This document shows, in pieces, positions 8,903-43,631 of a stretch of DNA of 64,000 nt; the first letter of the stretch is position 1, and each line of letters opens with the position of its first letter. The position numbers were made by a program, and so were the translations under genes. This DNA comes from Escherichia phage muut: the sequence record NC_052657.1; one strand, written 5' to 3'. Below the pieces are notes generated by a model. It was not told the DNA's origin, ran no database searches, and saw nothing but the letters and a program-made list of their open reading frames with translations.

Positions 8903-9555
8903 TGACAACAATTATTGCAACACGTAACAAAATTTTGTCTGACGGTAAGGTAACAGTAGGTAGTCGTGTAGACACTTTAAACTTCAAGAAAGTGCGTAAA
9001 ATTGGGGACTACCTTGTTGGTGGTGCAGGACGTCTGTCTTCTATCCTGACTTTCTTTTCTTGGTTTGAACAAAACTTACAATGCCAGGCAGCACAAGAGA
9101 CAATCCCAGGTTTGGTGATCCAGTCAGATCCCGATAAAGAAGATGAAGAGTTTGTGGCATTGGTTGTTCATCCAGACGGTAAAATTTATATGCACGAGGG
9201 TAATAATCCAACGCGAGCATATCCTTTAACTGAAGATTATTATGCTGTTGGTAGTGGGGCAGATTTTGCTTTAGCAGCTTTAGATGCAGGGGCAACTCCA
9301 GAAGAAGCGATGGAAGTTGCAAAACTGCGAGATGCTTTTTCCGGCGGTGAAACTTTTATCGAAGAGATCGAAGAACAACTGGAGTTAACAGCGGAAGATA
9401 TTCTGAACTTCAGCAAGGAGCAACTAATTAGTATGCTGTTGACTGGTGATCCTGATAGCGATGAAGCTGAAAGTATTTTAGCAGAAATGAAAGAATCACA
9501 AGAAAAAGTATTGACAGTCTCTGAAAAACTTGATAAAGTGTCCTCTGATAATTAA
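8902..9555 (+). CDS. HslV/proteasome-beta-like peptidase
   Basis: N-terminal MTTII (Thr nucleophile after Met), GG.G and AVGSGADFALAAL segments. Confidence 0.5.
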   Translation: MTTIIATRNKILSDGKVTVGSRVDTLNFKKVRKIGDYLVGGAGRLSSILTFFSWFEQNLQCQAAQETIPGLVIQSDPDKEDEEFVALVVHPDGKIYMHEGNNPTRAYPLTEDYYAVGSGADFALAALDAGATPEEAMEVAKLRDAFSGGETFIEEIEEQLELTAEDILNFSKEQLISMLLTGDPDSDEAESILAEMKESQEKVLTVSEKLDKVSSDN

Positions 9556-9565
9556 TCTAGTATAA

Positions 9566-9585
9566 ACCCCCTCAAGGGGGTTATT
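9566..9585 (+). terminator. terminator-like hairpin
   Basis: CCCCCT-CAA-GGGGG hairpin then TTATT; directly before next RBS. Confidence 0.35.
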
Positions 9586-9595
9586 AGGAGGAGAT

Positions 9596-10024
9596 ATGTT
9601 ACCAGTACCTGTAACCTTTGTAGAAAAAGCCTACTACTCTTTAGAACAAAACTGTAAAAGAGCTAAAAATTTTATTGAAAGTTTAGCAGAACAGCGTTAC
9701 ACTGTATCTAAAAAGGGATGGTTCAGAACTTCACAATATTCAGTCAACCCTTTCGGAGAAGTTCGTGTGTTGTACGGCAACACAGAAAATATCTTAGAAA
9801 GAATGTTAGAACTAGATAGGATCTCCTCCTGTGATTATCAACTGTTGAAATTTTACGATGTGTCAGAAAACATTAAAAACTTTCTTGACGATTTATGTAA
9901 ACGAAAAACAGAAGAAGATACAATACCAGTATCTATGGAAGAATTAACGTTCTTAAGAGATATTATGGTTTTTGAAGAAAACCCTGAAATCACAAAAGAG
10001 GAGATTTTAAGTAGTGGCAAATAA
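9596..10024 (+). CDS. hypothetical protein (142 aa)
   Basis: GGAGG RBS; no motif recognised. Confidence 0.5.
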   Translation: MLPVPVTFVEKAYYSLEQNCKRAKNFIESLAEQRYTVSKKGWFRTSQYSVNPFGEVRVLYGNTENILERMLELDRISSCDYQLLKFYDVSENIKNFLDDLCKRKTEEDTIPVSMEELTFLRDIMVFEENPEITKEEILSSGK

Positions 10025-16846: not shown

Positions 16847-17458
16847 ATGACTCAAAAAGTTGCATATCAAGTAGATCGTGAAGACGGTGAAGGTAGTGTT
16901 GTAGTTTTTGATACACATGGTCTTGCAGCAAGACGCAAAGGTGCTTGTCTACTGGACATTGGTGGTGAAGATGAATACTGCACTGTACGTAGAGTAAAAG
17001 AATTTGATCAATATGCTGAAAAAGGTTTTGTACCTGCAAAAGCACTATTAGAAGCTGGATGGTGGATACCTAGTGCACATGATTATGATATTTTGGAATC
17101 AGATACAGACGATTTTAACAGTGAAGATTTTGTTTTTTCTCTGGATGAAAAATGCGTTTGGAAAGATTGGGATGAAATGGAACGCCATGCTTATTTTATA
17201 AACGAAGCATTAGATCGTAAAACTTGGTTTGAGAATACAGTTAAAGCAGCGTATCCTCAATTTACTTTTACAGAATTTTGGGGTGGCCCACACCATATTA
17301 CTCATGTGGCATACTTCGAGTTCCCAGGCTCACGCTATAAAGGTACTGTCTATTGGGATTGGGACGAGGACAAAGAACCTTCTGCTCAAGACTTCCGTTG
17401 CTATGTTTGTCAAGGTGATCAAGAAGCCCTTGACAAGTACCTTAAAAGTCTGGTATAA
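16847..17458 (+). CDS. hypothetical protein (203 aa)
   Basis: ORF only. Confidence 0.5.
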   Translation: MTQKVAYQVDREDGEGSVVVFDTHGLAARRKGACLLDIGGEDEYCTVRRVKEFDQYAEKGFVPAKALLEAGWWIPSAHDYDILESDTDDFNSEDFVFSLDEKCVWKDWDEMERHAYFINEALDRKTWFENTVKAAYPQFTFTEFWGGPHHITHVAYFEFPGSRYKGTVYWDWDEDKEPSAQDFRCYVCQGDQEALDKYLKSLV

Positions 17459-17475
17459 TCCGTAAAACTTAACCA

Positions 17476-17499
17476 AAGCCCCAAGCAGGGGCTTTATTT
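17476..17499 (+). terminator. rho-independent terminator
   Basis: AAGCCCC-AAGCA-GGGGCTT then TATTTG. Confidence 0.6.
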
Positions 17500-17512
17500 G
17501 TCTGGAGGATAT

Positions 17513-32554: not shown

Positions 32555-32580
32555 GGAAGATAGCTGATAATGATTATCAT
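32555..32580. repeat. Fur-box-like palindrome
   Basis: GATAATGATTATCATTTGC, 16/19 to Fur consensus. Confidence 0.45.
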
Positions 32581-33107
32581 TTGCATATTTTCTATACTAT
32601 AAAACGCACTAAAAATCAAGATAATTCTGATTTATTGCGCTTTTAAGAAAGTAGGCTCAACAAATAGGCTATAACTATGCTCAACAAATAACAATAATAG
32701 TATGAAAAATCATTTATTCAGATATAAATAATTTTGCGCAATAGTAGTAATATTTTTCTTGACAAGAAAGATTTCTTTGTGTTCACATAGCGCCCCCTGG
32801 AAGGTGGCGCATTATGATCATCAATGTCATTATTCACCATGTTTATTATTGCATAGCTTATTATTTAGCTTATATTATAGCCAATGTTCTAAACACTAGC
32901 TAATAATAACGCACCGCAACAATGTAAGGGATACAATATACCATGTATATTGTTGCGCTTGCAATTGTTGCAAGCTACATAAGCACAAATAATAACTATC
33001 GGTGATGGTTATTATGTGGGGTGTGTAGTTGCGTTATTATTAGCCGCCTATGTGTCCGGCATAGGCTGCTAATGATACGCTTGCGAATTATATTTCTTGT
33101 TATAGTT

Positions 33108-33175
33108 ATTGTATGAAATGATTACCACATGAAATGGTTACTGTATGCAATGATTACTGTATGAAATGATTAGTT
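33108..33175. repeat. four tandem ~16-bp direct repeats (iteron-like)
   Basis: GTATGAAATGATTAC / CATGAAATGGTTAC / GTATGCAATGATTAC / GTATGAAATGATTAG. Confidence 0.55.
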
Positions 33176-33189
33176 AGGTAATAAATAGG

Positions 33190-33470
33190 AAGGTAAAGGT
33201 TAGATCATAAATAGATAGGATATGAATTATTTAGTAATGTTACTAACGATTTAATAGTTACTTTGTGCAATAATTCGATAGATTATAGTTATAGTTTTAA
33301 AGGTTAGATAGATTATATTTAGCTTAGTAATGATTTATATTAGTTATTGTTGTTTAATATAAGGTTATCAATGAGATAGTAACAGTAAGTTATAAATAAA
33401 GGTTAGATAATTAGTTTTAATTTAGTTAGATAACTTATTATTTTATAGGTTAGATGGTCATAAGTTAAGA
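33190..33470. repeat. dispersed AAAGGTTAGAT repeats (4-5 copies)
   Basis: Copies near 33196, 33297, 33408, 33434, 33446 in AT-rich context. Confidence 0.45.
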
Positions 33471-33545
33471 ATGATTATCATTATTGCATTATGCAGCTTA
33501 TTGCATAAATAATCAGCTATAAATAAGAATGATTATCATTTAAGA
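33465..33545. repeat. two Fur-box-like palindromes
   Basis: AGAATGATTATCATTATTG and AAATAAGAATGATTATCAT; second is near-identical to 43383-43405. Confidence 0.45.
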
Positions 33546-33733
33546 GGAAAGACAAGAAAAAGGCTGTTTTTGCCAGATAGTTGCATGAAGAAATTAAAAA
33601 TAAGCGGTCTAAAACACGTTGTAAGCGCCTTATGATCTTCATGGTATGGTTGTTCATCTGCTCCTTGATTAGCTCGATACCGCGATCTATTCACTTTTTT
33701 CGGTGAACGTTTTTGATAGGTAAAAGCTATCAT
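33536..33733 (-). CDS. hypothetical basic protein (65 aa), doubtful
   Basis: ORF at edge of non-coding region, poor RBS. Confidence 0.25.
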   Translation of the reverse strand: MIAFTYQKRSPKKVNRSRYRANQGADEQPYHEDHKALTTCFRPLIFNFFMQLSGKNSLFLVFPLK

Positions 33734-33744
33734 CTTTATTTAGG

Positions 33745-33771
33745 TAAAAAGAAAGGGCGCAATAAGCGCCC
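33745..33771 (-). terminator. rho-independent terminator
   Basis: GGGCGC-TTATT-GCGCCC then TTTCTTTTT on minus strand. Confidence 0.55.
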
Positions 33772-33787
33772 TTGTTTGAAATGTTAT

Positions 33788-34171
33788 TTACTGATAAGCA
33801 GGATCGTTTGTTATATCAATCCAATGAGCTAAATTAATTTTATTTTTTGCTTTCATTTTCTCGATCAAACGTTCGGCTAATGTCTCGGAACGAATATAAA
33901 CATAATCGCTAAAATCTTGCCCCGTTTCTTCGTCGATCATTTCCCTATATTCAACCTTGCCGATAAACGCATGATTCAGCGCATAAGTTTTACCCGTGTA
34001 CCAGTTGTGTAAATGAATCTCGCATTTATAATCGTCGCTATAACCTTCGGTTGTTCTAACTTCAACCAAGTCACCTTTAAACACTGATAAGCACCACATA
34101 GGATCATGATCTACAGCGCCGTTAAAATCTTTACCGTTTACAGTCGCTGCCAGGTTGATGATATTGCTCAT
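33788..34171 (-). CDS. hypothetical protein (127 aa)
   Basis: AGGAatcacc RBS. Confidence 0.5.
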   Translation of the reverse strand: MSNIINLAATVNGKDFNGAVDHDPMWCLSVFKGDLVEVRTTEGYSDDYKCEIHLHNWYTGKTYALNHAFIGKVEYREMIDEETGQDFSDYVYIRSETLAERLIEKMKAKNKINLAHWIDITNDPAYQ

Positions 34172-34246
34172 GGTGATTCCTCGTTTACCGTTTAAAATTG
34201 TTTGCCCTACACGATAACTATAAATTAACAGAGGCTATAAAGCAAG

Positions 34247-34477
34247 TTATTTTTCATAGAATTTTTCTACTGTGATATTCTTCCCAGTGGGATTAGCTAC
34301 TTTCAAAATTTTATCATGTACTGGACGCCCAAAAGAATAAGATCCGTATACAGTAAACCAATAATCGCCGTCAGGCTGTACTATTACCGCCGCATATGGT
34401 ACGCCTTTTTCGTTATTGCTGACAGAATAGATCACATTGCCGTTCAGAGCCACAGCGCGTTTAATTTGTTCGATCAT
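34247..34477 (-). CDS. hypothetical protein (76 aa)
   Basis: ATG with AGGA RBS downstream of hairpin; ORF-track N-terminus translates the hairpin (GGKWFPA). Confidence 0.5.
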   Translation of the reverse strand: MIEQIKRAVALNGNVIYSVSNNEKGVPYAAVIVQPDGDYWFTVYGSYSFGRPVHDKILKVANPTGKNITVEKFYEK

Positions 34478-34496
34478 GATATGATTCCTATATTGA

Positions 34497-34555
34497 GCGG
34501 GAAACCACTTCCCGCCTACGTGATACATCTTAGTATAAGGGCGATCCGGTGTCAA
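34497..34555 (-). promoter_or_regulatory. promoter plus stem-loop cassette
   Basis: TTGACA-17-TAAGAT then GCGGGAAACCACTTCCCGC hairpin. Confidence 0.55.
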
Positions 34556-34904
34556 TAGGTGAGATTGTAAAGATTTGATAGTTTATTTCTTTAATGTTTT
34601 GTTGTTTGATAGGTGGAAGCTATCAATATATAATAAGATCGTCCGGTGATTATCTTCCCCTGCTCCCAGGTGCCGCCCGTTCCATAATAATAATCAAAAG
34701 CAGGATAAAAGGCAAGATAAAAAGCAAATTATTTCCTATGTGCTTTAAACGCTCTAAATAGTTTTATAACAGCTTTTTCATCCTGGCAAGGTGATTAGTC
34801 ATTGTTACCTTGTTTAAGCGGTTATAATCGGTTTTAGGCTGTTTTACGCCACCTTTTACGTTTATTCTTTACGTGTTACTTCCATCGTGAAAAAAGAATA
34901 CAAA

Positions 34905-34934
34905 AAAGGGCGCTTAGTGCGCCCCTTTCTTTTA
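34905..34934. terminator. rho-independent terminator (bidirectional)
   Basis: GGGCGC-TTAGT-GCGCCC flanked by A-run and T-run. Confidence 0.5.
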
Positions 34935-34941
34935 CCGTGTA

Positions 34942-35331
34942 TTAATATTCGTTATAATACATTGCTAACTTTTCATCAAAAGCCGATTGACGATCTGCAT
35001 ACTCCCAAAACATTTCCTGATCCTGTTGTTCGTCATCGTCCATCATATTAAATTGCGCAACCTCCTGGTAAGTGATCGCCATATTATAACGATAGGTGAT
35101 CTCTTCTGCGATGTTTTCCGGTAAAGATGATTCTACACTGTCTAACAGCATATTTAACATCATTTCAGCCGCTTTTTCATCATTATCAAAGCAGTAAGCA
35201 GACCATGCCGCATGATGTTTATTTTTCATCTTTGCAATCAAGCCGTTGACTAAAAAAGGCGCTACGTTGTTAACGATACCCTGTAAAGATTGAAATTTTT
35301 CAACGTTAGAAACAGAAACCAGGTTGCGCAT
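34942..35331 (-). CDS. hypothetical acidic protein (129 aa)
   Basis: ATG downstream of hairpin; ORF-track start lies in hairpin loop. Confidence 0.5.
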   Translation of the reverse strand: MRNLVSVSNVEKFQSLQGIVNNVAPFLVNGLIAKMKNKHHAAWSAYCFDNDEKAAEMMLNMLLDSVESSLPENIAEEITYRYNMAITYQEVAQFNMMDDDEQQDQEMFWEYADRQSAFDEKLAMYYNEY

Positions 35332-35354
35332 AGTATTTACCTTTTTGATTACCT

Positions 35355-35413
35355 GGCGGGAAACCATTTCCCGCCTACGTGGTAAATAGTACCATATTGG
35401 GGATCGGTGTCAA
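35355..35413 (-). promoter_or_regulatory. promoter plus stem-loop cassette
   Basis: TTGACA-16-TACTAT then GGCGGGAAATGGTTTCCCGCC. Confidence 0.55.
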
Positions 35414-35419
35414 TACTTT

Positions 35420-35806
35420 TTATTCAATATAAATCAAATTATCTTCACCAATGTAAGCATGCACCGATGGCATTAATTTAGCTGCATTTGTTAGGCGGTT
35501 GGCGGTGTTAGTAGTGTATATTTCAGGGCGATCCCAAAAGCCTACGCCGTGACCGTTACGGGTGAAATGTAAGTCATTCCCGATCTGGTTTGCTGTTGCG
35601 CCGTCGCTCATTGCCTCAGAGATAGCAGCATCATTGGCATCACAATAAGCCGCTACGTCATGAATGATCCGCTGATGGGCTTGATCTGAAAAATCATAAT
35701 CGTCTAAGTTATCAATAAAATTACCTTCATGATCCCTAGCTGATTCAGCAAAAATAAAGGCTTCTTTATAACCGTTGATGATTTCAATAATGATTTCTGT
35801 TTTCAT
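35420..35806 (-). CDS. hypothetical protein (128 aa)
   Basis: ATGA overlap with upstream gene. Confidence 0.5.
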   Translation of the reverse strand: MKTEIIIEIINGYKEAFIFAESARDHEGNFIDNLDDYDFSDQAHQRIIHDVAAYCDANDAAISEAMSDGATANQIGNDLHFTRNGHGVGFWDRPEIYTTNTANRLTNAAKLMPSVHAYIGEDNLIYIE

Positions 35807-36018
35807 GCTGTACGCTCGACAATAATAATGGTTTGCGGTATCTCGTTTTCTACTACTAACAAGGCTTTTTTCTGTGTGATAGATATTTTAACACGTTGTA
35901 AAGTAGCGGTAAAATCTTTCATTTCATTATGCGCGGATTTAGTGCAATGCCAGATCTCAGGCTTACCTATTTGCAAGCCGCGTAAAAATTCTGTTTTACC
36001 TGTCTTATTCGTGATCAT
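35803..36018 (-). CDS. hypothetical protein (71 aa)
   Basis: ATG with AAGGTG RBS. Confidence 0.45.
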   Translation of the reverse strand: MITNKTGKTEFLRGLQIGKPEIWHCTKSAHNEMKDFTATLQRVKISITQKKALLVVENEIPQTIIIVERTA

Positions 36019-36028
36019 TTGATTCACC

Positions 36029-36133
36029 TTATCCAATACCGTGGGAAGATAGGATCATGTTAGCCATAGTTGCAACCAATCCAACCGACAACGCCAGGCC
36101 AACTATTACAACCGTGAAAATTTTCTCTAACAT
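36029..36133 (-). CDS. small hydrophobic peptide (34 aa)
   Basis: GAGGG RBS; own promoter/hairpin upstream; single TM-like segment. Confidence 0.4.
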   Translation of the reverse strand: MLEKIFTVVIVGLALSVGLVATMANMILSSHGIG

Positions 36134-36151
36134 GATTCTACCCTCATTAAT

Positions 36152-36213
36152 GGGCGTTGCCTTATTGCCCCGCCCTATGTCGTACACTTTACCAGATAAC
36201 CGCGTATTGTCAA
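36152..36213 (-). promoter_or_regulatory. promoter plus stem-loop cassette
   Basis: TTGACA-16-TAAAGT then GGGCG...CGCCC hairpin. Confidence 0.5.
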
Positions 36214-36214
36214 A

Positions 36215-36409
36215 CTATTTTTTATAAGGGATCAGTAAACTTCTTGCTACCGCTTCACGTAAACCTTCCCTTTTTATCAGGTCTATTGTTGCAGGGTGGC
36301 AAGTAAAAGCCTTTGACCATTTTTGATCACCTGGTTTACGGGCGAAAATGTAAACTTCTCCGTCGATTTCATCCCAACGAGTATTGCTTGTTAGTTTTTT
36401 AAGCGCCAT
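36215..36409 (-). CDS. hypothetical protein (64 aa)
   Basis: ATG downstream of hairpin. Confidence 0.5.
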   Translation of the reverse strand: MALKKLTSNTRWDEIDGEVYIFARKPGDQKWSKAFTCHPATIDLIKREGLREAVARSLLIPYKK

Positions 36410-36432
36410 GCTGATTTCTCTTTTAGTTGTGA

Positions 36433-36488
36433 GCGGCACTATTGCCGCCCTACGAAATACATTCTACCCGATTTATAATTGTTGTCAA
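36433..36488 (-). promoter_or_regulatory. promoter plus stem-loop cassette
   Basis: TTGACA-16-TAGAAT then GCGGCA-ATAG-TGCCGC hairpin. Confidence 0.55.
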
Positions 36489-36489
36489 A

Positions 36490-36759
36490 CTATTTTTTCA
36501 AGCTCGACCAGTCAAAACACGGGGCGATCTCGTTAAAACTTGTACCCTGTAAAGCACATAATTTTTTAGCAATAGCCGCCGTAACCTGGCGTTGTACGCG
36601 CGGATCTGCTACTGATTGGAGAAAATAGGCGGTTTTATATGTGATCATGCTTTCGCCTGTTTCCTTGTTAACGTGGTGCACGGTTTTAGCCTTATCATCT
36701 TTTACCAGGGTGTAACCGGATTCGATGGCCTTGATTGCAACGTCCAAAGATATTTTCAT
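36490..36759 (-). CDS. hypothetical protein (89 aa)
   Basis: AAGAGG RBS. Confidence 0.5.
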   Translation of the reverse strand: MKISLDVAIKAIESGYTLVKDDKAKTVHHVNKETGESMITYKTAYFLQSVADPRVQRQVTAAIAKKLCALQGTSFNEIAPCFDWSSLKK

Positions 36760-36778
36760 GATTTACCTCTTTATTGAC

Positions 36779-36799
36779 GGCGGGGAATACTCCCCCGCC
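36779..36799 (-). promoter_or_regulatory. intercistronic stem-loop (no promoter)
   Basis: GGCGGGGGAGTATTCCCCGCC between upstream stop and RBS. Confidence 0.45.
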
Positions 36800-36806
36800 T
36801 TATTAA

Positions 36807-36977
36807 TTACTCTTCATCGTCGCCGTTATAGTATTCAATGCCGTTTTCATCGGTTACGGTGATGTTAACGCCACCAATAGCAACACGATCACGGGCAAAC
36901 GTCATGGCTTCATTTAAATCTTCAGACCAAAAAATATTGTGACCTTTGCGCGATACATAAAACATAGTTGGGATCAT
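36807..36977 (-). CDS. hypothetical protein (56 aa)
   Basis: ATG downstream of hairpin. Confidence 0.45.
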   Translation of the reverse strand: MIPTMFYVSRKGHNIFWSEDLNEAMTFARDRVAIGGVNITVTDENGIEYYNGDDEE

Positions 36978-37000
36978 GATTTGTTTCTCTTCTGTTATGA

Positions 37001-37057
37001 GCGGCACTATTGCCGCCCTATGTGATAAACTTTACTACGTTGTTTGCCTAGTGTCAA
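37001..37057 (-). promoter_or_regulatory. promoter plus stem-loop cassette
   Basis: TTGACA-17-TAAAGT then GCGGCA-ATAG-TGCCGC. Confidence 0.55.
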
Positions 37058-37058
37058 A

Positions 37059-37343
37059 TTATTTTTTAATGTTTTGCCCTACAAAATTAATCACTTCCTT
37101 AAGCTGTTTCTCAGTCATGATCGTGCCTGGCAATTCTTCTTTGATTTCTTCCGGTAGATAGATATTACCGCGCCAGGTTAATAAACAACCGTTTTGATCT
37201 TCGCAGATAGAATAAGAGAAGATCCACTCATTATCATTCTCAAGCTCCCAAAAGCACAAAAAATCTTCTTTCCCCAGGTTTTCAACGGTTAAACATAAGC
37301 CGCGACGTGCTGCATAGTTGGAAAGTGCTTTTGTGATCTTCAT
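37059..37343 (-). CDS. hypothetical protein (94 aa)
   Basis: AAGAGA RBS. Confidence 0.5.
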   Translation of the reverse strand: MKITKALSNYAARRGLCLTVENLGKEDFLCFWELENDNEWIFSYSICEDQNGCLLTWRGNIYLPEEIKEELPGTIMTEKQLKEVINFVGQNIKK

Positions 37344-37363
37344 AGCTTATCTCTTCTTTTAAG

Positions 37364-37425
37364 GCGGGGAAACCATTTCCCCGCTCTATGAGATACAATA
37401 TACTACCCGTTCGGTGTGCTGTCAA
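37364..37425 (-). promoter_or_regulatory. promoter plus stem-loop cassette
   Basis: TTGACA-17-TATATT then GCGGGGAAATGGTTTCCCCGC. Confidence 0.55.
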
Positions 37426-37749
37426 TCAATAATCTTCAATATTTTCTACATTGACAAAAGCATGTTTATTTTCTAAGTTTTCGCCGTACCATTGCCCCAT
37501 GTTGATTTCTGCGGTGCGCAACCAGGACATGCCGCGCTCTATCTTTTTACTTGCAATCTCGATCCGGCTTTTGCATAGTGCTTTCGCTTGCAATGTAAAA
37601 ACACTATTGCCCTGTAATGCTTCCAGGTCATCATGTGCAAGGCGATACTCTTTAAAGCCTGATTCTATCATTTCAATCGCATCAAGGAAACGAGCGCGAT
37701 GATAGAAAAAATCAGAGTTATCCAAATAAACACCGATCACAGATTTCAT
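37426..37749 (-). CDS. hypothetical protein (107 aa)
   Basis: ATG with AAGGG RBS 60 nt inside ORF-track ORF. Confidence 0.5.
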   Translation of the reverse strand: MKSVIGVYLDNSDFFYHRARFLDAIEMIESGFKEYRLAHDDLEALQGNSVFTLQAKALCKSRIEIASKKIERGMSWLRTAEINMGQWYGENLENKHAFVNVENIEDY

Positions 37750-37759
37750 AATTTTACCC

Positions 37760-37820
37760 TTTTGTTTGCGGCCTTTGCCGTTTTCAAGATATAGTTTAAA
37801 GCATAACAAAAAATTGTCAA
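37760..37820 (-). promoter_or_regulatory. promoter with short stem-loop
   Basis: TTGACA-16-TAAACT; CGGC-AAAG-GCCG hairpin. Confidence 0.4.
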
Positions 37821-37849
37821 GCCTTTAAAGCGTACAACTATAAAACCTA

Positions 37850-37969
37850 TTAAAACACAATGCATAACAACATGGCTATAGTAGCAATACAACATAAAGC
37901 CATGCTTGTTTTCCTTCCTTCCTCGTATGCTGGATTTATTACGCTATATTGTACGGGAATAATTTTCAT
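37850..37969 (-). CDS. small hydrophobic peptide (39 aa)
   Basis: AAGGA RBS; Cys-rich hydrophobic C-terminus. Confidence 0.3.
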   Translation of the reverse strand: MKIIPVQYSVINPAYEEGRKTSMALCCIATIAMLLCIVF

Positions 37970-38078
37970 GCTGTTTCCTTAATGTCTTAAAACGTGGTTT
38001 ACAATAGAAACAAGTATACAGAAGAAAAAAGATCCTGACAATAAGATCCCGAAAAATAAATGTAAATAGGGCATGGTT

Positions 38079-38381
38079 TTACTCCTTAAAAAAATCATTG
38101 ACAATTAAACTGATAACGCCCAGCACCAGATCACCAGGTAGCGCCGCGCTTTCGTTGTTGCTTGTTTGCACTTCCTCACTAGTACCAGCATGATAGATTG
38201 CATGGTAAGCAATAGTACAATAACCTTTCGTTATTTCTTTAAGATTAATGATTAGCACGTTATTTGTTTCATCTTGAAACAATTTAGCGGTGATAGTATT
38301 GTTTTCTTTTACACTATCGACTTTTATTGATGGATCATTTACACCAGAAAAAAGAAAAAACGTTTTAGCTATGCCGTTCAT
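38079..38381 (-). CDS. hypothetical protein (100 aa)
   Basis: GGAG RBS. Confidence 0.5.
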   Translation of the reverse strand: MNGIAKTFFLFSGVNDPSIKVDSVKENNTITAKLFQDETNNVLIINLKEITKGYCTIAYHAIYHAGTSEEVQTSNNESAALPGDLVLGVISLIVNDFFKE

Positions 38382-38428
38382 GTAGTTCTCCTTTGTTGTG
38401 TGTATCTTATAACGTGCTTTCTATGTTG

Positions 38429-38830
38429 TCAATCTTTTATCTCGGTGCATTTTGCTAGGGTATACGTTGCAAGTGCTGACACTAGTTTTTCATTGCTACG
38501 ATCTGCGGCTGTACTGTGTACTTTTTGAATACTTTTTAACCACGGCGTAAAATTTTGAGTAGTCAGCACACTGGTAATAATTTCACATGGCACATCTTCA
38601 TTTAAGCCGTTAACAATAGACTTATCTATTTTTGCCGTTAGTTGTGTAACAGCACCATAAGCGATCATGTGTGAATCCTCCATGATTTCATCGGGGATCG
38701 CATTATTAATAAGCATGACGTTTTCCATTGCATCAACGGCGCTTAATTCTGCTACTGTGGAGGATATCGCCGCGCTAGATGTTCCAACCATGCCAAAATA
38801 GATTAAACCAGCGATCAATAAGTTTTTCAT
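38429..38830 (-). CDS. secreted/periplasmic protein with signal peptide (133 aa)
   Basis: ATG with GAGG RBS; N-terminal MKNLLIAGLIYFGMVGTSSA signal-like segment. Confidence 0.5.
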   Translation of the reverse strand: MKNLLIAGLIYFGMVGTSSAAISSTVAELSAVDAMENVMLINNAIPDEIMEDSHMIAYGAVTQLTAKIDKSIVNGLNEDVPCEIITSVLTTQNFTPWLKSIQKVHSTAADRSNEKLVSALATYTLAKCTEIKD

Positions 38831-38838
38831 TTCTTGCC

Positions 38839-39021
38839 TCATATATGTTTTATTGAGATTATATTGTCACTATATACAACGTTTTTCAACGTGTCAATAA
38901 AAATCTTATTGCCTTCAATCCCCAGGATCACGCCGCTAGTTATGAAGCCATATTGATCACGATATCGGGCGCATAACCTTTGCCCCTGGGCTAGTGCCTT
39001 GCTTATTTCGTCTAATTTCAT
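38839..39021 (-). CDS. hypothetical protein (60 aa)
   Basis: GGAG RBS. Confidence 0.45.
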   Translation of the reverse strand: MKLDEISKALAQGQRLCARYRDQYGFITSGVILGIEGNKIFIDTLKNVVYSDNIISIKHI

Positions 39022-39115
39022 TTTTAAAGCTCCTGTAAAGCTGTCTAACGTGGTTTATAGGCTTATCCTGGCGTTACCATTGCCTATGGGTAACAAGCCT
39101 CTATATAAGCTAAAA

Positions 39116-39139
39116 GGGCGCTTATTGCGCCCTTTTTTG
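39116..39139. terminator. rho-independent terminator (bidirectional)
   Basis: GGGCG-CTTATTG-CGCCC with T-run. Confidence 0.5.
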
Positions 39140-39277
39140 TTATTCGTTCCAGTATCTTTTTGTGCTGCGATCTCTTTTTGTTTTGTTCCGCTTATCGCCT
39201 TTTTTGGTGATCTCTTCGTTCCAATTTTTACGCGCCTTGCTGCGGTTGAATTTTTCGATCTGCTGTGATGCGTTCAT
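39140..39277 (-). CDS. small basic protein (45 aa)
   Basis: AAGGA RBS; Lys/Arg rich; plus-strand ORFs here look spurious. Confidence 0.4.
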   Translation of the reverse strand: MNASQQIEKFNRSKARKNWNEEITKKGDKRNKTKRDRSTKRYWNE

Positions 39278-39292
39278 GTTTTTTCCTTTTAA

Positions 39293-39652
39293 TCACGCCA
39301 CGTTATGCTGTTTTGCCAGGGTTACGATCATGCTTGCAATATATAACCAATAATTTTCCCGCTCACGGGTAACGGTTGTTTCTCTGCTTGTTTCTTTTAT
39401 GTACTTCCATTCAATTAACAAGTGATCGATCTCGTTATAATCAAAAGCAATATTGATTTCTGACGGTAAACCTTGTAACCAGGAGGCTATCGCCTTGATC
39501 ATGTTATGATTGTAACGTTTTTGATTATCGGGATACCAGTATTCAGAATTAAAACGGCGCATCAGTTCGGTGATTTTTTCTTTTTCGGTTGTAGTACCAT
39601 CAAAAGAAATAGCCGACAAAATGTAAGTTTTAATTGCTTTTGCTGATTTCAT
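39293..39652 (-). CDS. hypothetical protein (119 aa)
   Basis: AAAGAG RBS after hairpin. Confidence 0.5.
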   Translation of the reverse strand: MKSAKAIKTYILSAISFDGTTTEKEKITELMRRFNSEYWYPDNQKRYNHNMIKAIASWLQGLPSEINIAFDYNEIDHLLIEWKYIKETSRETTVTRERENYWLYIASMIVTLAKQHNVA

Positions 39653-39673
39653 AATCTTATCTCTTTATTGATG

Positions 39674-39732
39674 GCGGGAAACCATTTCCCGCCGTTGTTG
39701 TTACTTTACTTATAAATGATGCTACTGTCAAG
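39674..39732 (-). promoter_or_regulatory. promoter plus stem-loop cassette
   Basis: TTGACA-18-TAAAGT then GGCGGGAAATGGTTTCCCGCC. Confidence 0.55.
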
Positions 39733-39738
39733 CGAATA

Positions 39739-39909
39739 TTATTTATTTTTTAACGTTAATGTTCCCAGCTTATCAGCGTGACGCAGACCAGGAAAGATCC
39801 ATTTTCCTGATTCATCTTTCACCGGGGCTTTAAGCGTAGCGCCCAGGTTGGCGGCGTTAACTTTACGTGCAACGTTGCGAGCGGCTTCACGGGTGGCGAA
39901 AGTGATCAT
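39739..39909 (-). CDS. small protein (56 aa)
   Basis: GAGGA RBS after hairpin; below ORF-track cut-off. Confidence 0.45.
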   Translation of the reverse strand: MITFATREAARNVARKVNAANLGATLKAPVKDESGKWIFPGLRHADKLGTLTLKNK

Positions 39910-39932
39910 GATGTTTCCTCTTCTCTTTGTTA

Positions 39933-39993
39933 GGCGGTGGGCTATTCCACCGCCTTAATGAATATAGTTTACTGATTTTAGTTATCTTGTCAA
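39933..39993 (-). promoter_or_regulatory. promoter plus stem-loop cassette
   Basis: TTGACA-16-TAAACT then GGCGGTGG-AATAGC-CCACCGCC. Confidence 0.55.
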
Positions 39994-40001
39994 GATTATT
40001 T

Positions 40002-40229
40002 TTAGTTTAATCCATCCAGGCACAACAAGCGATCAACGTTTAGATCGGTTAGGCTAATCGTTGGCACCTGGTAGGATTCGATGTACTCAACGCTCGACCA
40101 TTGCCCAAAGTTAGCGACCGCCCAGCTATTCAAGGAGGAGTGAAGATCATCCCCTTTCTTCTCTGTGATAACTGCTACTACCTGAGAGATTCCAACCGTA
40201 CCGGATACGCGAACAATAACGATAGCCAT
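40002..40229 (-). CDS. hypothetical protein (75 aa)
   Basis: AAAGG RBS after hairpin. Confidence 0.5.
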   Translation of the reverse strand: MAIVIVRVSGTVGISQVVAVITEKKGDDLHSSLNSWAVANFGQWSSVEYIESYQVPTISLTDLNVDRLLCLDGLN

Positions 40230-40251
40230 AATGATAACCTTTCTTTGATTT

Positions 40252-40312
40252 GGCGGGAAACCATTTCCCCGCCTTATGTGATAAACTATACCAGATTAAA
40301 AAACGTTGTCAA
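40252..40312 (-). promoter_or_regulatory. promoter plus stem-loop cassette
   Basis: TTGACA-16-TATAGT then GGCGGGGAAATGGTTTCCCGCC. Confidence 0.55.
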
Positions 40313-40321
40313 CTGCTTTTA

Positions 40322-40561
40322 TTACATTCCTACCATAGCGGCGCGGATACTGGTTTTACTGAATTTATAGCCATCTGGCGTAGTATTTTCGCCCATTTCG
40401 TTAAGTAGTGACATCATTTCACGCGCGGCGTTATCTTTATTGTTGTTCACGGCTATAAATTCTTTTGCCATATTATAAAAACCTGGATCGTTATTAATCC
40501 AAAGGCTTACATTCCAATGAGTTTTATTTTTGTGACCGTTGTACATTTTAGATTTAGCCAT
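40322..40561 (-). CDS. hypothetical protein (79 aa)
   Basis: AAGAG RBS after hairpin. Confidence 0.5.
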   Translation of the reverse strand: MAKSKMYNGHKNKTHWNVSLWINNDPGFYNMAKEFIAVNNNKDNAAREMMSLLNEMGENTTPDGYKFSKTSIRAAMVGM

Positions 40562-40585
40562 GATGTTAATCTCTTTTTCAGTGAG

Positions 40586-40644
40586 GCGGGAACTATTCCC
40601 GCTCTCGATGTAAACTATTATACAGTACTAAGATACTTTGTCAA
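40586..40644 (-). promoter_or_regulatory. promoter plus stem-loop cassette
   Basis: TTGACA-16-TATAAT then GCGGGAATAGTTCCCGC. Confidence 0.6.
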
Positions 40645-40647
40645 TAC

Positions 40648-40923
40648 TTAAGTATTGTAAATGTCGTGAATAGTGATAAAGTTTTTACGACCGTAAACAT
40701 GTAAATCAGTATCAATGTAGTGCTTATCAAGTACATCCTCGACGCTTAACGCGGTGTCGTGAATATCTTCGTAGAATTGAGGATCTACAATCTTACTTAA
40801 ATCATCCGGCGTTAACTTATCATTAAGCCATTGAACCGCCTGGATATCTGCTTCACGTTTCCAGTCTTCCAGGTTAGTAGTCAGTACTTGTTCGATTTCG
40901 TTAGCTGTCAGTAGAATCCGCAT
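40648..40923 (-). CDS. hypothetical protein (91 aa)
   Basis: GGAA RBS. Confidence 0.5.
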   Translation of the reverse strand: MRILLTANEIEQVLTTNLEDWKREADIQAVQWLNDKLTPDDLSKIVDPQFYEDIHDTALSVEDVLDKHYIDTDLHVYGRKNFITIHDIYNT

Positions 40924-40956
40924 TTTAATGTTTCCTTATCAGTGGTTGATGTAAGT

Positions 40957-40984
40957 ATTATACTCGTTTACTTTCTATTGTCAA
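40957..40984 (-). promoter_or_regulatory. sigma70-like promoter
   Basis: TTGACA-16-TATAAT. Confidence 0.55.
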
Positions 40985-40994
40985 ACTATTTTAT

Positions 40995-41100
40995 CAGGGG
41001 GAGTTTTTCGTGTGCCTTACTCCTGGGCTACTTAACGGGGTGTTACTTCGTTCCCCCGTCCTGATATGAAACATTTTACGCTTTTTATTCGTGCTGTCAA
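40995..41100 (-). promoter_or_regulatory. second promoter followed by double stem-loop
   Basis: TTGACA-16-TAAAAT, then ACGGGG...CCCCGT and GGAGT...ACTCC hairpins. Confidence 0.45.
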
Positions 41101-41106
41101 TGCTTT

Positions 41107-41472
41107 TTATAAATCTTTTTTACGTTTAACATCGCTTGCATGGCTGTATACAGCGATCCCATTGTCACGGCAAAAACGGGAAAGATACGCGCCGCGTGAA
41201 AACTCTTTACCTTCCAGGTTGATAACCTTGCTAAACTCTTCTAGGGCAACGGTATCAAAATGATCCCCGTATCCATATTGGAACGGCACGTTTACCACTT
41301 CGATCAGTTTACCGCCGATCTCAACGTCAACCATCAAAGAGAAATAAGTATTACCATAAGACTTTTGAAACCAGCGACGGGCGCTAATATGCACCGCTTC
41401 AATGCTGGATAGTTCAATTTTAGCCGTGTTAGCCAGGGTAGCATAAGCGGAAACATTAATATTTTTAGCCAT
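41107..41472 (-). CDS. hypothetical protein (121 aa)
   Basis: AGGA RBS. Confidence 0.5.
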   Translation of the reverse strand: MAKNINVSAYATLANTAKIELSSIEAVHISARRWFQKSYGNTYFSLMVDVEIGGKLIEVVNVPFQYGYGDHFDTVALEEFSKVINLEGKEFSRGAYLSRFCRDNGIAVYSHASDVKRKKDL

Positions 41473-41509
41473 GATTTTATTCCTTAGTAACGCTTCAATT
41501 TATATAAGC

Positions 41510-41537
41510 ATTATAGCTTACTGATTTCAGTTGTCAA
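41510..41537 (-). promoter_or_regulatory. sigma70-like promoter
   Basis: TTGACA-16-TATAAT. Confidence 0.55.
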
Positions 41538-41558
41538 GTGATTTTTTATTTCACCTTT

Positions 41559-41615
41559 GAGGGGGTTGCCCCGCTCTATGTGGTACATATTACGGGGCTT
41601 GTTTGCATATGTCAA
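41559..41615 (-). promoter_or_regulatory. promoter plus stem-loop cassette (tandem with 41510-41537)
   Basis: TTGACA-17-TAATAT then GAGCGGGGCAACCCCCTC. Confidence 0.45.
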
Positions 41616-41618
41616 GCC

Positions 41619-42173
41619 TTACACAATGCAATTTTCATAATTTTTTAAGGCTTGTATTTTTTCCTCTTCTGTCGGCCTATATGGCTGGATCTCTTCCTCT
41701 TCCAGGGTGGGCATGATTTCTTCCTCTTCCTCCTGGTCGTCCTGGTCTTCCTCTTGCGCTATGGTAACAAGTTTATTGATCTTCTCCTGGGCTTTAATCA
41801 ATTTTGCATCTAGCACCATTTTAGCGGTGTTGTATACAGTCCATGCCATGCGCTTTTCTTCGTATGCCTTATCTAGTGCGGCTAATTTAGCGGGATACTC
41901 TTCTAACACCTTAAAAGCCGGATCAATGCTATATAAGGGATTATTTTTAGCATCATCGCTTGGATCTGCGGCGCTTGCAATGTCAGCGTTACCATTTGCC
42001 AGCCAACCAGGGCGAACGGATCGCGCCTTTGTGTTGCCGTTGCTCTTTGCCGCTCGATTTCCTATCTGCTCCCCGCTATACCCTACCATGTGATCGATCA
42101 TTTCATCTGGTATTATGCGCGGATCATTAGCGTCATGCTTTACCCATGACTGGATCACATATTCACGCCCCAT
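41619..42173 (-). CDS. hypothetical protein with acidic C-terminus (184 aa)
   Basis: ORF overlapping upstream gene end. Confidence 0.5.
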   Translation of the reverse strand: MGREYVIQSWVKHDANDPRIIPDEMIDHMVGYSGEQIGNRAAKSNGNTKARSVRPGWLANGNADIASAADPSDDAKNNPLYSIDPAFKVLEEYPAKLAALDKAYEEKRMAWTVYNTAKMVLDAKLIKAQEKINKLVTIAQEEDQDDQEEEEEIMPTLEEEEIQPYRPTEEEKIQALKNYENCIV

Positions 42174-42435
42174 GTTCGTTCGCCTCTTCTGTTAGTAGTT
42201 TACATACCTTAAACATGCTTGCCGCATCTTTTGACGGTAGCCAGCCTATCCGATACACTCCAGGATCTGGATTAGTTATATCAGTTAGTTGCGCGTTGCG
42301 ATGATTAAAAATAGTGTAACCGCCGCCAGCACGGGGATAAACATTATCTTTAAACCTGATAGCGTATCTCGCCAGGTCGAACGTTGTAGCATGTTCAAAA
42401 GCGATCACATTATCAAAAACTTTTAGAAAAAACAA
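42163..42435 (-). CDS. hypothetical protein (90 aa)
   Basis: TTG start with GGGGAGG RBS. Confidence 0.45.
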   Translation of the reverse strand: MFFLKVFDNVIAFEHATTFDLARYAIRFKDNVYPRAGGGYTIFNHRNAQLTDITNPDPGVYRIGWLPSKDAASMFKVCKLLTEEANEHGA

Positions 42436-42437
42436 GA

Positions 42438-42584
42438 TTATCCTCCCCAGCGTTTAAAGCCCGTTGCACGGTTGTTTTTTAGCTCTCGTTTTAGTCTCTT
42501 GCAACGGTTTACAAGTGCAAACCGTGCCGGAGTCGTAACAGTAGCGCCGTTTTTGGTGTGAATACTCATTACATATTGTTTCAT
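42438..42584 (-). CDS. small basic protein (48 aa)
   Basis: ATG after hairpin; stop overlaps RBS of next gene. Confidence 0.4.
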   Translation of the reverse strand: MKQYVMSIHTKNGATVTTPARFALVNRCKRLKRELKNNRATGFKRWGG

Positions 42585-42604
42585 AAAGTTTTATCCTATG
42601 TAAG

Positions 42605-42656
42605 CGGGAACTATTCCCGCTTTAAGATAGCTTATCAGGTTTTAGTGCAACGTCAA
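42605..42656 (-). promoter_or_regulatory. promoter plus stem-loop cassette
   Basis: TTGACG-16-TAAGCT then GCGGGAATAGTTCCCGC. Confidence 0.5.
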
Positions 42657-42690
42657 CCGTTTTTTTAATCTTTTTTCATTTCTTTTTTGC

Positions 42691-42744
42691 TTGCTATCTA
42701 TAAAGGAAACGGCTATTATCTTTCTACCGCGCCAACCAGGGCGC
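42691..42744 (+). promoter_or_regulatory. divergent promoter plus stem-loop (plus strand)
   Basis: TTGCTA-17-TATTAT then GCGCC-AACCAG-GGCGC hairpin. Confidence 0.45.
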
Positions 42745-42766
42745 ACATCAAAGAAAGGGCGATACC

Positions 42767-43314: not shown

Positions 43315-43405
43315 TGGTAATGATTCTCATTCTCTTACTGAGAATGATTATCACTTACATAATTAAATGATAATGATTCTCATTTACAAATGAGAATGAT
43401 TATCA
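43315..43405. repeat. cluster of four Fur-box-like palindromes
   Basis: TAATGATTCTCATT, GAGAATGATTATCAC, GATAATGATTCTCAT, GAGAATGATTATCAT. Confidence 0.45.
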
Positions 43406-43430
43406 TCCGCACACCCATAAAAACACGAAA

Positions 43431-43631
43431 TTGAACTTTTCATTTTTGATTTTTCTACGGAAAAAGGCAAAAAAACTTTAAATAAACTGGGGAATTTTTA
43501 AAAAATTGAAGTTTTCATTTTCAAAATCTGGACAGAAATACATACAAAAACTTTAAATAATTTTGACCAAACTTGAACTTTTCATTTTCAAAATTTGTAG
43601 CCAAAAATCTGTAAAAACTTTAAATAATTTT
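43431..43631. repeat. three tandem ~62-67 bp direct repeats
   Basis: Each unit: TTGAA(C/G)TTTTCATTTT(C/T)(A/G)A(A/T)(A/T)T ... AAAAACTTTAAATAA. Confidence 0.55.

Follow-up and report, generated by a model that had tools for sequence, protein, structure and literature searches.

Repeated promoter-hairpin units coincide with homology breakpoints in a small-gene block of a phi92-like coliphage

The analysis of a 64-kb window of Escherichia phage muut (the whole stretch of DNA presented above) confirmed an array of promoters and hairpins in a block of about 8 kb, located at 34.2–42.7 kb on the minus strand. Most small genes of the block have their own strong promoter, which is followed by a GC-rich hairpin. 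The best reading of these promoter-hairpin cassettes is that they are a variant of the promoter-early stem-loop (PeSL) cassettes of T4-type phages. We give a probability of roughly 0.55 to the block being a PeSL variant made of self-contained early expression cassettes with stabilising 5′ hairpins, the repeats of which double as recombination sites.

Results

Organization of the gene block

Sequence comparison identified the window as part of a phi92-like myophage, Justusliebigvirus (Stephanstirmvirinae), with about 96% identity to phage AV123; the comparison with T4-type phages made in a first-pass annotation does not extend to the type of the phage itself. All 20 block proteins tested (20/20) are without known function. 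The order of elements in a cassette is an A/T-rich tract, a sigma-70 promoter, a linker close to 5′-GTATCACRTAG-3′, a GC-rich hairpin, about 20 unpaired A-rich bases including the RBS, and ATG (Table 1). The CAYRTAG part of the linker is conserved.

The sequence TTGACA-N16-18-TAnnnT occurs 37 times in the window (both strands) versus 4.57 ± 2.18 times in dinucleotide shuffles, which bears out the earlier claim of near-consensus sigma70 promoters in the block. The matches cluster in a single block and on a single strand: eighteen distinct sites of this kind occupy the minus strand from 34,527 to 41,615, and a TTGACG variant is found at 42,656. Hexamers of the block promoters match the E. coli sigma-70 consensus in 10–12 positions out of 12, and the AT fraction upstream of the −35 box is 0.75 compared with 0.60 for the region (p ~7e-7).

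Twelve promoters are followed by a stable hairpin (−35 positions 42656, 41615, 40644, 40312, 39993, 39731, 37425, 37057, 36488, 36213, 35413 and 34555). Two further hairpins are irregular, that of cassette 41100 with its large loop and that of 37820 with just 4 bp; four promoters have no hairpin (−35 at 41537, 40984, 38897 and 38432), and unit 34245 is a decayed copy. The architecture described in the first-pass annotation is therefore present in 12–14 units, and the count of at least 15 full units was too high. Its tandem cassettes (41510-41615 and 40957-41100) and its promoterless hairpin (36779-36799) were found as claimed.

Table 1. Promoter-hairpin units and terminators of the block (window coordinates)
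Feature	Position	Strand	Details
Cassette	42585..42656	-	promoter TTGACG-16-TAAGCT 42629-42656; hairpin 42602-42622 (AAGCGGGAATAGTTCCCGCTT); ATG 42584
Tandem unit	41473..41615	-	promoter 41587-41615, imperfect hairpin 41559-41576; hairpinless consensus promoter 41510-41537; ATG 41472
Tandem unit	40924..41100	-	promoter 41073-41100, large-loop hairpin 41034-41060 (part of a ~80-nt structured leader); hairpinless consensus promoter 40957-40984; ATG 40923
Cassette	40562..40644	-	consensus promoter 40617-40644; hairpin 40583-40606; ATG 40561; type repeated in jumbo phage Turkey3
Cassette	40230..40312	-	promoter TTGACA-16-TATAGT, TG extension, 40285-40312; hairpin 40252-40273; ATG 40229
Cassette	39910..39993	-	promoter 39966-39993; hairpin 39932-39955 (GGCGGTGG/CCACCGCC); ATG 39909
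Cassette	39653..39731	-	promoter 39703-39731; hairpin 39673-39693 (GGCGGGAAATGGTTTCCCGCC); ATG 39652
Bidirectional terminator-like hairpin	39112..39136	.	AAAAGGGCGC..GCGCCCTTTT, within block
Promoter-only unit	38843..38897	-	promoter 38869-38897; no hairpin; ATG 38842
Promoter-only unit	38382..38432	-	promoter 38404-38432; no hairpin; ATG 38381
Weak-hairpin unit	37750..37820	-	promoter 37793-37820; 4-bp hairpin 37769-37780; ATG 37749
Cassette	37344..37425	-	promoter 37397-37425; hairpin 37362-37387; ATG 37343
Cassette	36978..37057	-	promoter 37029-37057; hairpin 36999-37018 (GGGCGGCAATAGTGCCGCTC, one G.U pair); ATG 36977
Promoterless hairpin	36760..36806	-	hairpin 36779-36799, directly past upstream gene's stop codon, 20 nt before ATG 36759
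Cassette	36410..36488	-	promoter 36461-36488; hairpin 36431-36450; ATG 36409
Cassette	36134..36213	-	promoter 36186-36213, TG-extended -10; interrupted hairpin 36152-36175; ATG 36133
Cassette	35332..35413	-	promoter 35386-35413; hairpin 35355-35375; ATG 35331; loop ATG 35367
Canonical intrinsic terminator	34902..34930	-	GGGGCGC..GCGCCCC + T-run; hairpin family unlike that of cassettes
Cassette	34478..34555	-	promoter 34527-34555; hairpin 34496-34516 (two G.U pairs); ATG 34477
Decayed unit	34172..34245	-	TTGCTT-17-TATAGT + linker TATCGTGTAGGGC; no hairpin; ATG 34171
Canonical intrinsic terminator	33753..33773	-	closes block

Position and stability of the hairpins

Folding energies of the twelve cassette hairpins are −12 to −19 kcal/mol, and their 5′ arms are G-rich. 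Against dinucleotide shuffles z was −2.4 to −5.9 for eleven of them and the promoterless hairpin (41615 was not refolded). The distance from the −10 hexamer to the stem start is 9–12 nt in the twelve window cassettes, slightly longer than the ~8 nt given in the first-pass annotation, and 9–11 nt in 54 of 71 unique cassettes from 10 loci. The stem-to-ATG distance is looser; the hairpin lies about 8–12 nt upstream of the SD. In most MFE structures of the predicted leaders a 5′ hairpin is followed by an unpaired RBS and AUG.

The sequence downstream of the hairpins is A-rich, with 0–3 T in the 8 nt 3′ of each stem, and no cassette hairpin is followed by a U-tract. A terminator pattern scan called none of the minus-strand cassette hairpins and called three GGGCGC-type terminators. 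The true terminators of the block, which belong to a separate hairpin family with canonical U-tracts, are located where the block is punctuated. Rfam covariance models gave no family match; the two hits obtained were below threshold, ascribed to chance, and located at the 39.1-kb terminator.

These data bear on an alternative explanation in which the hairpin acts as a terminator or attenuator of the PeSL type, damping upstream transcription so that each gene depends chiefly on its own promoter. In RB49 and phi1, lacZ expression fell as far with a PeSL stem-loop as with rrnB T1, and the "polyG then polyC" description of those stems matches ours (PMC2839356). The cassette hairpins are also like intrinsic terminators in being GC-rich, intergenic, 6–10 bp long and short-looped; the promoterless one directly follows a stop codon, and cassette hairpins were labelled terminators in the annotation of phage Paula. 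However, most of the Paula calls are on the non-coding strand, the U-tract is replaced by A-rich sequence, hairpin position is set by the promoter and not by the stop codon, and the phage punctuates the same block with canonical terminators of another family. Moreover, the hairpin is downstream of its own promoter, and efficient termination there would cut short the very transcript that carries it. We consider this explanation unlikely. Since the hairpin would be in the 5′ leader, it is more probably an mRNA stabiliser than a terminator; the alternative raised in the first-pass annotation, a stabiliser or processing site, appears to fit the hairpin anatomy better than a PeSL terminator does.

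Conservation of base pairing

Alignment of the hairpins revealed compensatory changes in eight of ten stem pairs. Compensatory cells numbered 94, versus 35.5 ± 4.9 in shuffles (0 of 500 reached that value) and 4–21 with slid partners. At least six kinds of stem sequence are present, with arms of 6–10 bp and spacers of 3–7 nt (13 in cassette 41100), and the core GCGGG/CCCGC recurs in most copies. The loop is not conserved and is inverted in some relatives. A covariance model of the hairpins, a check proposed with the first-pass annotation, found the family nowhere but in this block, in the window as well as in a complete relative of 146 kb. A strand test weakly favored sense RNA, with 39 G.U cells against 15 A.C or C.A cells, although these cells are not independent. 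The sense fold was more stable than the antisense fold in 43 of 58 cases; several variants (CCCACC) pair better antisense.

An inverted repeat over +1 to +25 with a core common to most copies would be in the classic position for a DNA operator, at which a dimeric phage repressor could shut the block off later in infection. Such a role is hard to reconcile with at least six stem sequences, with arms and spacers of variable length and with a spacer that is inverted without loss of the element; complementarity is maintained by compensatory changes and not by conservation of half-site sequence, and in a jumbo phage the same geometry occurs with other stems. Neither half-site sequence nor half-site spacing is conserved, and we regard the operator as very improbable. 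Hardly more credible is a site for binding or processing by a phage or host RNA-binding factor (antiterminator, translational repressor or endoribonuclease). A conserved structured element in every leader, 8–12 nt before the SD and preceded by the conserved linker, could serve such a factor, but the loop varies in sequence and length and is invertible, no Rfam family matches, and the stem is below RNase III length.

Breakpoints and chimeric cassettes

The coincidence of gene-content breakpoints with the hairpin units, to which the first-pass annotation had pointed, was found. Out of 56 homology breakpoints relative to related phages, 35 are in cassettes, which constitute 17% of the sequence (p ~3e-13). 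Per base, the density in cassettes is about three-fold above that in other intergenic DNA; the enrichment is partly survivorship, because viable whole-gene indels must end in intergenic DNA. Overlaps at the junctions are 6–84 nt. Two clean chimeric-cassette junctions were identified. In one, a single chimeric cassette of phi92 stands in place of two cassettes and two genes of the window, and the crossover lies within the hairpin. In the other, two AV123 cassettes are combined in window cassette 39993, a chimera that has its crossover at the −10 box. Exact repeats between cassettes are 15–23 nt long, the longest consisting of hairpin plus linker; cassettes 36488 and 37057 have a 23-nt exact block in common. 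Judged by these comparisons, the repeated units are evidently sites of gene gain, loss and swapping among related phages.

Loop inversions and crossovers inside the hairpin indicate dynamics at the DNA level, and, together with the hairpin-plus-linker repeats, they would suit selfish or neutral palindromic repeats (REP- or MITE-like) or recombination scars that spread with promoters and have no role in expression. We think this improbable: dozens of diverged copies, drawn from several families of phages, keep a fixed distance between −10 box and stem, the stem is kept by compensatory substitutions, and the RBS region is consistently predicted to be unpaired.

The same architecture was found in rV5-like phages, Klebsiella myophages and a 361-kb jumbo coliphage. 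One gene with parts of its flanking cassettes is 94% identical to the jumbo phage. In rV5-like FV3 three segments are 88–90% identical and their order differs.

Discussion

PeSL cassettes were described in the T4-type phage pairs RB49/phi1, PST/T4 and nt-1/KVP40 (Arbiol et al. 2010, PMC2839356; Comeau et al. 2014, PMC4122927). Their A/T-rich tract contains the stop codon of the preceding gene, and they recombine with one another to give excised mini-circles (Arbiol 2010, PMC2839356), with crossovers mapped to the loop, −10 box and SD regions (PMC2839356; PMC4122927). As in those cassettes, an A/T-rich tract, a consensus sigma-70 promoter, a stable G-then-C stem-loop, an SD and a start codon make up the units described here; these are repeated ahead of small ORFan genes in a plastic region, and they bound the indels of close relatives. 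Published PeSL stem-loops, for which termination of transcription was demonstrated, are usually between or over the −35 and −10 boxes, less commonly upstream of −35 or just before +1 (PMC2839356). In our block the stem-loop, which has no U-tract, invariably follows the −10 box, falls in the leader and begins beyond the expected +1, so that just the rarest published class comes close. The phage is not T4-like, and its cassettes are common to rV5-like, Klebsiella and jumbo myophages. Thus the PeSL match proposed earlier holds for the architecture and the link with breakpoints, but not for the type of phage or the stem-loop position.

Under the stabiliser reading, host RNA polymerase would start about 7–8 nt past the −10 box, and the hairpin would be at the extreme 5′ end of the mRNA with some 2–4 unpaired bases ahead of it. 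We infer this position, as the literature searched contained no transcription starts for the phi92-like group. In mRNAs with a 5′ stabiliser, no more than about 4 unpaired nt precede the hairpin, and the gain in half-life depends on RNase E or RppH; among phages, the T7 gene 10 leader is such a case. Like ompA, papA and T7 gene 10, the cassettes have a stable hairpin a few bases from the predicted 5′ end and then an unstructured RBS region. Those, however, are single, experimentally proven elements, whereas here the 5′ end is predicted, and the hairpin recurs as a family of at least a dozen copies that also act as recombination sites. Stem-loops at the 5′ terminus are known to stabilise E. coli mRNAs (Emory, Bouvet and Belasco, listed in PMC3997798). 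The cassette hairpin would most likely protect the transcript from 5′-end-dependent decay by RppH and RNase E, and would also keep the RBS clear of upstream pairing. When transcription reads through from the gene ahead, the hairpin may in addition form a cap at the 3′ end of that gene's message. The promoterless hairpin is conserved; therefore a 5′-terminal position is not obligatory. Four strong promoters of the block do without a hairpin, which speaks against the mechanism.

As direct repeats with 15–23-nt exact blocks, the cassettes could serve as crossover sites for homologous recombination that would delete, insert, replace or reorder single genes. Such exchange would link members of the phi92 group with one another, as well as with rV5-like phages and jumbo coliphages. 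A broader interpretation, which we offer tentatively and with some doubt, is that promoter, 5′ hairpin and RBS are a portable cassette of otherwise unrelated phages, an integrase-free gene-cassette exchange system. Hairpin plus linker would then supply just enough identity for crossover between co-infecting phages, and a captured gene would come pre-equipped for early, stable expression. The lineages concerned are phi92-like, phAPEC8-like and rV5-like phages, Klebsiella myophages and ~350-kb jumbo coliphages; an analogous form with equal −10-to-stem spacing is seen in Cluster-B-like mycobacteriophages.

Gene calling is affected by the hairpins. As the first-pass annotation stated, open reading frames are translated through them: 34247..34555, 36215..36439 and 36807..37007 each run into one. 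The start of 34942..35367 is an ATG within a hairpin loop (35367), a mis-called start codon, and the AV123 annotation has its start at the same loop ATG. If confirmed, public records and PHROG profiles carry start codons and "terminators" wrongly called inside these hairpins.

In large lytic phages, small early genes are thought to hold much of the anti-defence and host-takeover function, and their exchange is poorly understood. If confirmed, our findings would extend the PeSL idea past T4-type phages to phi92-like and related therapeutic coliphages, would provide sequence-level evidence of crossovers within cassettes, hairpin included, and would suggest that a compact design of promoter, 5′ hairpin and open RBS is widely reused.

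Promoters and hairpins of the array

The first-pass annotation described an array of sigma-70 promoters, each followed by a hairpin, ahead of almost all small minus-strand genes. This array is a real, well-defined feature and is statistically solid: the window contains TTGACA-N16-18-TAnnnT 37 times, where shuffled sequences give 4.57 ± 2.18, and a stable hairpin, its stem starting 9-12 nt past the -10 hexamer, was found behind 12 promoters. From 34.5 to 42.7 kb the minus strand carries 18 distinct TTGACA-type sites and a TTGACG at 42,656. Many promoters of the block agree with the consensus at 10-12 of 12 positions, three have a TG-extended -10 box, and the 20 nt upstream of the -35 box are A/T-rich (0.75 vs 0.60). 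Four are not followed by any hairpin. The promoterless hairpin is present as claimed; it is listed in the Table with the irregular and decayed units, which are named by their -35 coordinates.

Eleven of the 12 leaders, each spanning the stretch between presumed +1 and ATG, were refolded together with the promoterless hairpin. The hairpin formed at the 5′ end in all leaders, the RBS and AUG were unpaired in most minimum free energy structures, and z-scores ranged from -2.35 to -5.88 relative to dinucleotide shuffles. An 82-nt leader between tandem promoters, common to the window and the jumbo phage Turkey3, gave a closed two-hairpin fold with an energy of -22.6 kcal/mol (z -2.7), and may be either a small RNA or just a long leader.

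The hairpins have also been misread as coding sequence, as the first-pass annotation held: longest-ORF calls extend into them and one begins at the ATG of the loop AAATGG, where the annotation of phage AV123 also starts a gene. Two PHROG profiles (20168 and 13850) have 11-12 additional N-terminal positions. By reading through the hairpin, public annotations and these profiles add 10-12 residues to small proteins; one such extension starts at the loop ATG. In the phage Paula record cassette hairpins are annotated as 'terminator', most of them on the non-coding strand.

Judged by its sequence, the cassette hairpin does not appear to be a canonical terminator. The 8 nt past each stem are A-rich with 0-3 T, and a terminator scan of the coding strand called none of the cassette hairpins; it did call three hairpins of another family (GGGCGC..GCGCCC with T-runs). 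At two plus-strand sites a terminator-like hairpin of a further kind separates a consensus promoter from the RBS: AACCCCC..GGGGGTT at one, and AAAGCCCC..GGGGCTTT with a T-run at the other. In each, the promoter lies 5′ of the preceding gene's terminator.

Conservation of the hairpin

An Rfam scan of the block gave only two sub-threshold matches, both at a terminator. A MAFFT alignment of the leaders was dropped as not structure-aware and unfit for pair counting, and was replaced by a seed alignment, a covariance model covering linker and hairpin, and a model-guided alignment. When the unfiltered model was run across the window, all matches with E < 0.1 fell within 34,490-42,630 on the minus strand, and the plus strand showed palindromic echoes of them. 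Phage A145, whose complete genome is 146 kb, had all its strong matches in a single block of about 9.4 kb and only two marginal ones elsewhere. The scan of ten loci (the list comprises the window, four Justusliebigvirus, three Phapecoctavirus, one labelled Pseudomonas phage, the rV5-like FV3 and the 361-kb Turkey3) yielded 105 unique hairpin-bearing promoter leaders; the stem families are given in the Table.

Compensatory changes were observed at 8 of the 10 stem pairs (79 distinct rows). Covarying cells numbered 94, compared with 35.5 ± 4.9 in shuffles (0 of 500) and 4-21 with slid partners, in an alignment that was fitted to the model, and so leans to structure, and whose sequences are related. 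Conservation is structural in the stem and does not extend to the loop. Loop variants include TGG, TAG, ATAG, ATGG and ACAC, and twice the loop is found in opposite orientations in relatives that retain the stems (TAG vs CTA; ATAG vs CTAT). Such inversion suggests flipping of the spacer at palindromes and points to palindrome dynamics at the DNA level. Recognition of a specific loop is disfavoured, since loops vary and are inverted between relatives.

In 54 of 71 unique cassettes the stem lies 9-11 nt past the -10 box; its distance to the ATG varies more (13-28 nt, mode 21). On the sense strand G.U pairs occupy 39 cells against 15 for A.C/C.A mismatches, and the sense fold is more stable than the antisense one in 43 of 58 unique hairpins, while recurrent CCCACC variants favour the antisense strand. 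With cells that are non-independent and confounded by shared ancestry, this strand comparison weakly supports a role of the hairpin at the RNA level.

Gene exchange at the cassettes

Comparison with ten related loci showed that gene-content breakpoints are concentrated in the cassettes, as had been proposed from the window: 35 of 56 distinct homology ends fall inside cassettes, whose share of the block is 17% (binomial p ~3e-13). Per base, this is about ten times the coding rate and three times that of other intergenic DNA. Survivorship accounts for part of this, as a gene-sized indel is viable only if it ends between genes. At the joints, overlaps of 6-84 nt occur between neighbouring alignments, and such shared sequence is the signature of homologous exchange between repeats.

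Individual junctions can be read. Phage phi92 is without window 36499-36983 (two genes) and has one cassette in its place, with the promoter and linker of window cassette 37057 and the post-hairpin leader of cassette 36488; the switch point lies within a 23-nt hairpin block common to both. AV123 has an additional gene where the window has cassette 39993 alone, and this cassette is a chimera of the two flanking cassettes of AV123, joined at the -10 box. Window 40570-41083 (one gene and parts of both flanking cassettes) is absent from AV123 and is 94% identical to Turkey3. Three other window segments, with ends at the -35 box, -10 box or hairpin, are 88-90% identical to FV3, where their order differs. 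On the sequence evidence, these junctions directly support the cassettes as recombination substrates.

Genomic setting and occurrence in other phages

The 9.2-kb region is found at 92-95% coverage and 95-97% identity in the Justusliebigvirus Escherichia phages AV123, Paula, ESCO8 and phi92, and more patchily in Phapecoctavirus phages. Its phi92 homologues are gp225 to gp248, extending to the right direct terminal repeat. In ESCO8 the block starts a long series of leftward genes, adjoining a divergent region, and the leftward genes past it are closely packed; among the leftward genes downstream of the block in the window, no hairpin was found after consensus promoters. Of 20 block proteins, 19 fall into PHROG families without a known function and one has no match. 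Two records closely resemble the coliphage block, MG065645 (Campylobacter phage A145, UNVERIFIED; ~96% nucleotide identity across 95%) and OR584014 (Pseudomonas phage PsgM04F; ~86% across 26%), and their host labels look doubtful.

Both sides of the block are flanked by non-coding regions in which sequences resembling the E. coli Fur box cluster. With up to 3 mismatches, GATAATGATAATCATTATC has 6 matches against 0.02 expected; TGAGAATGATTATCA occurs four times in these clusters, which also contain an inverted repeat of 19 nt. They may reflect iron-dependent control or another repeated binding site. A/T-rich non-coding DNA also holds a 16-nt tandem repeat (~ATGATTACnnnATGAA, 4-5 copies) and direct repeats of 58 and 29 nt, which look iteron-like.

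The same promoter, linker and hairpin build was found in Turkey3 (361 kb; at least 15 cassettes in 12.5 kb), in rV5-like phages such as FV3, and in 142-149-kb Klebsiella phages (one a Klebsiella myophage-like contig). As the pattern used to scan IMG/VR specifies 17 bases, single matches are mostly chance, probably, and multi-match loci alone were used. Arrays of similar units were seen in three high-GC actinophage contigs (GC 0.65-0.70), including Mycobacterium phage Thonko at 61.8-69.4 kb, with seven copies in 7.2 kb. The unit reads TTGACA-N17-TAACTT, ~11 nt, GGCGGG-N5-CCCGCC, directly GGGAAGG, and ATG; the spacing from -10 box to stem is that of the coliphages, and the hairpin abuts the Shine-Dalgarno sequence instead. 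A literature search found no description of actinophage hairpin arrays; the paper on the mycobacteriophage Cluster O repeat describes a different repeat.

Table. Features of the array and its surroundings (window coordinates unless stated)
Feature	Position	Remarks
Hairpin without promoter	36779-36799	
Irregular or weak hairpin units	41100, 37820	
Decayed copy	34245	
Two-hairpin leader	40985-41066	minus strand
Stem family		GGCGGGAAA/TTTCCCGCC
Stem family		GCGGCA/TGCCGC
Stem family		GCGGCGGA/TCCGCCGC
Stem family		GGGGCG/CGCCCC
Stem family		GAGGGGAA/TTCCCCTC
Stem family		GGGGAGAA/TTCTCCCC
Inverted loops	42602-42622 vs L005 ~10800; L009 ~9470	L005, L009: relatives
Overextended starts	35367, 36439, 37007, 34555; L005 CDS 2906-3331, 4179-4403	
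Terminators of other family	34930-34902, 33773-33753, 39136-39112	terminator scan
Promoters with terminator-like hairpin	9511-9600, 17430-17510	plus strand
Near-Fur-box sequences	33466-33540, 43315-43405, 32566-32584, 56403-56421	
Inverted repeat, 19 nt	43367-43406	
Tandem and direct repeats	33102-33181, 43427-43597	first near position corresponding to phi92 terminal repeat

Discussion

The cassettes combine a strong promoter with a free-looped hairpin, which begins 2-4 nt past the expected start and lacks a U-tract, and with an RBS that is left open. This anatomy best fits a 5′-terminal structural element of the mRNA. Such a hairpin would shield the mRNA from 5′-end-dependent decay and would insulate the RBS. 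Among phages, the T7 gene 10 leader carries such a stem-loop. For E. coli mRNAs, stabilising 5′ stem-loops are established in references listed in PMC3997798. The conserved hairpin without a promoter shows that the 5′-terminal position is not obligatory, and the hairpin may act between cistrons too, for instance by capping a processed 3′ end. Three other candidates were rejected: the stems are too short for an RNase III site, a sigma-70 promoter is present where an N4-type hairpin promoter was considered, and the units are gene-spaced, unlike a CRISPR-like or tandem repeat array.

The nearest described system is the promoter-early stem-loop (PeSL) of T4-type phages (Arbiol et al. 2010, PMC2839356), to which the first-pass annotation had likened the cassettes; that reading is right in part. 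The likeness holds for composition, genomic context and association with indels. It fails in host lineage, which here is non-T4, in the place of the stem-loop, which here is fixed downstream of the promoter and in PeSLs is mostly inside it, and in termination, of which the cassette sequences give no sign. On account of these differences the cassettes are a PeSL-like variant and not a strict member. The searchable literature on rV5, phi92 and Phapecoctavirus held no description of them; the phi92 and PVP-SE1 genome papers are outside its coverage and may mention them, and the rV5 supplement lists only promoters, cut 7 nt past the -10 box, and U-tract terminators. The finding extends and varies the known PeSL concept; its interest is moderate, and would be greater if exchange across phage families and the function of the 5′ hairpin prove true.
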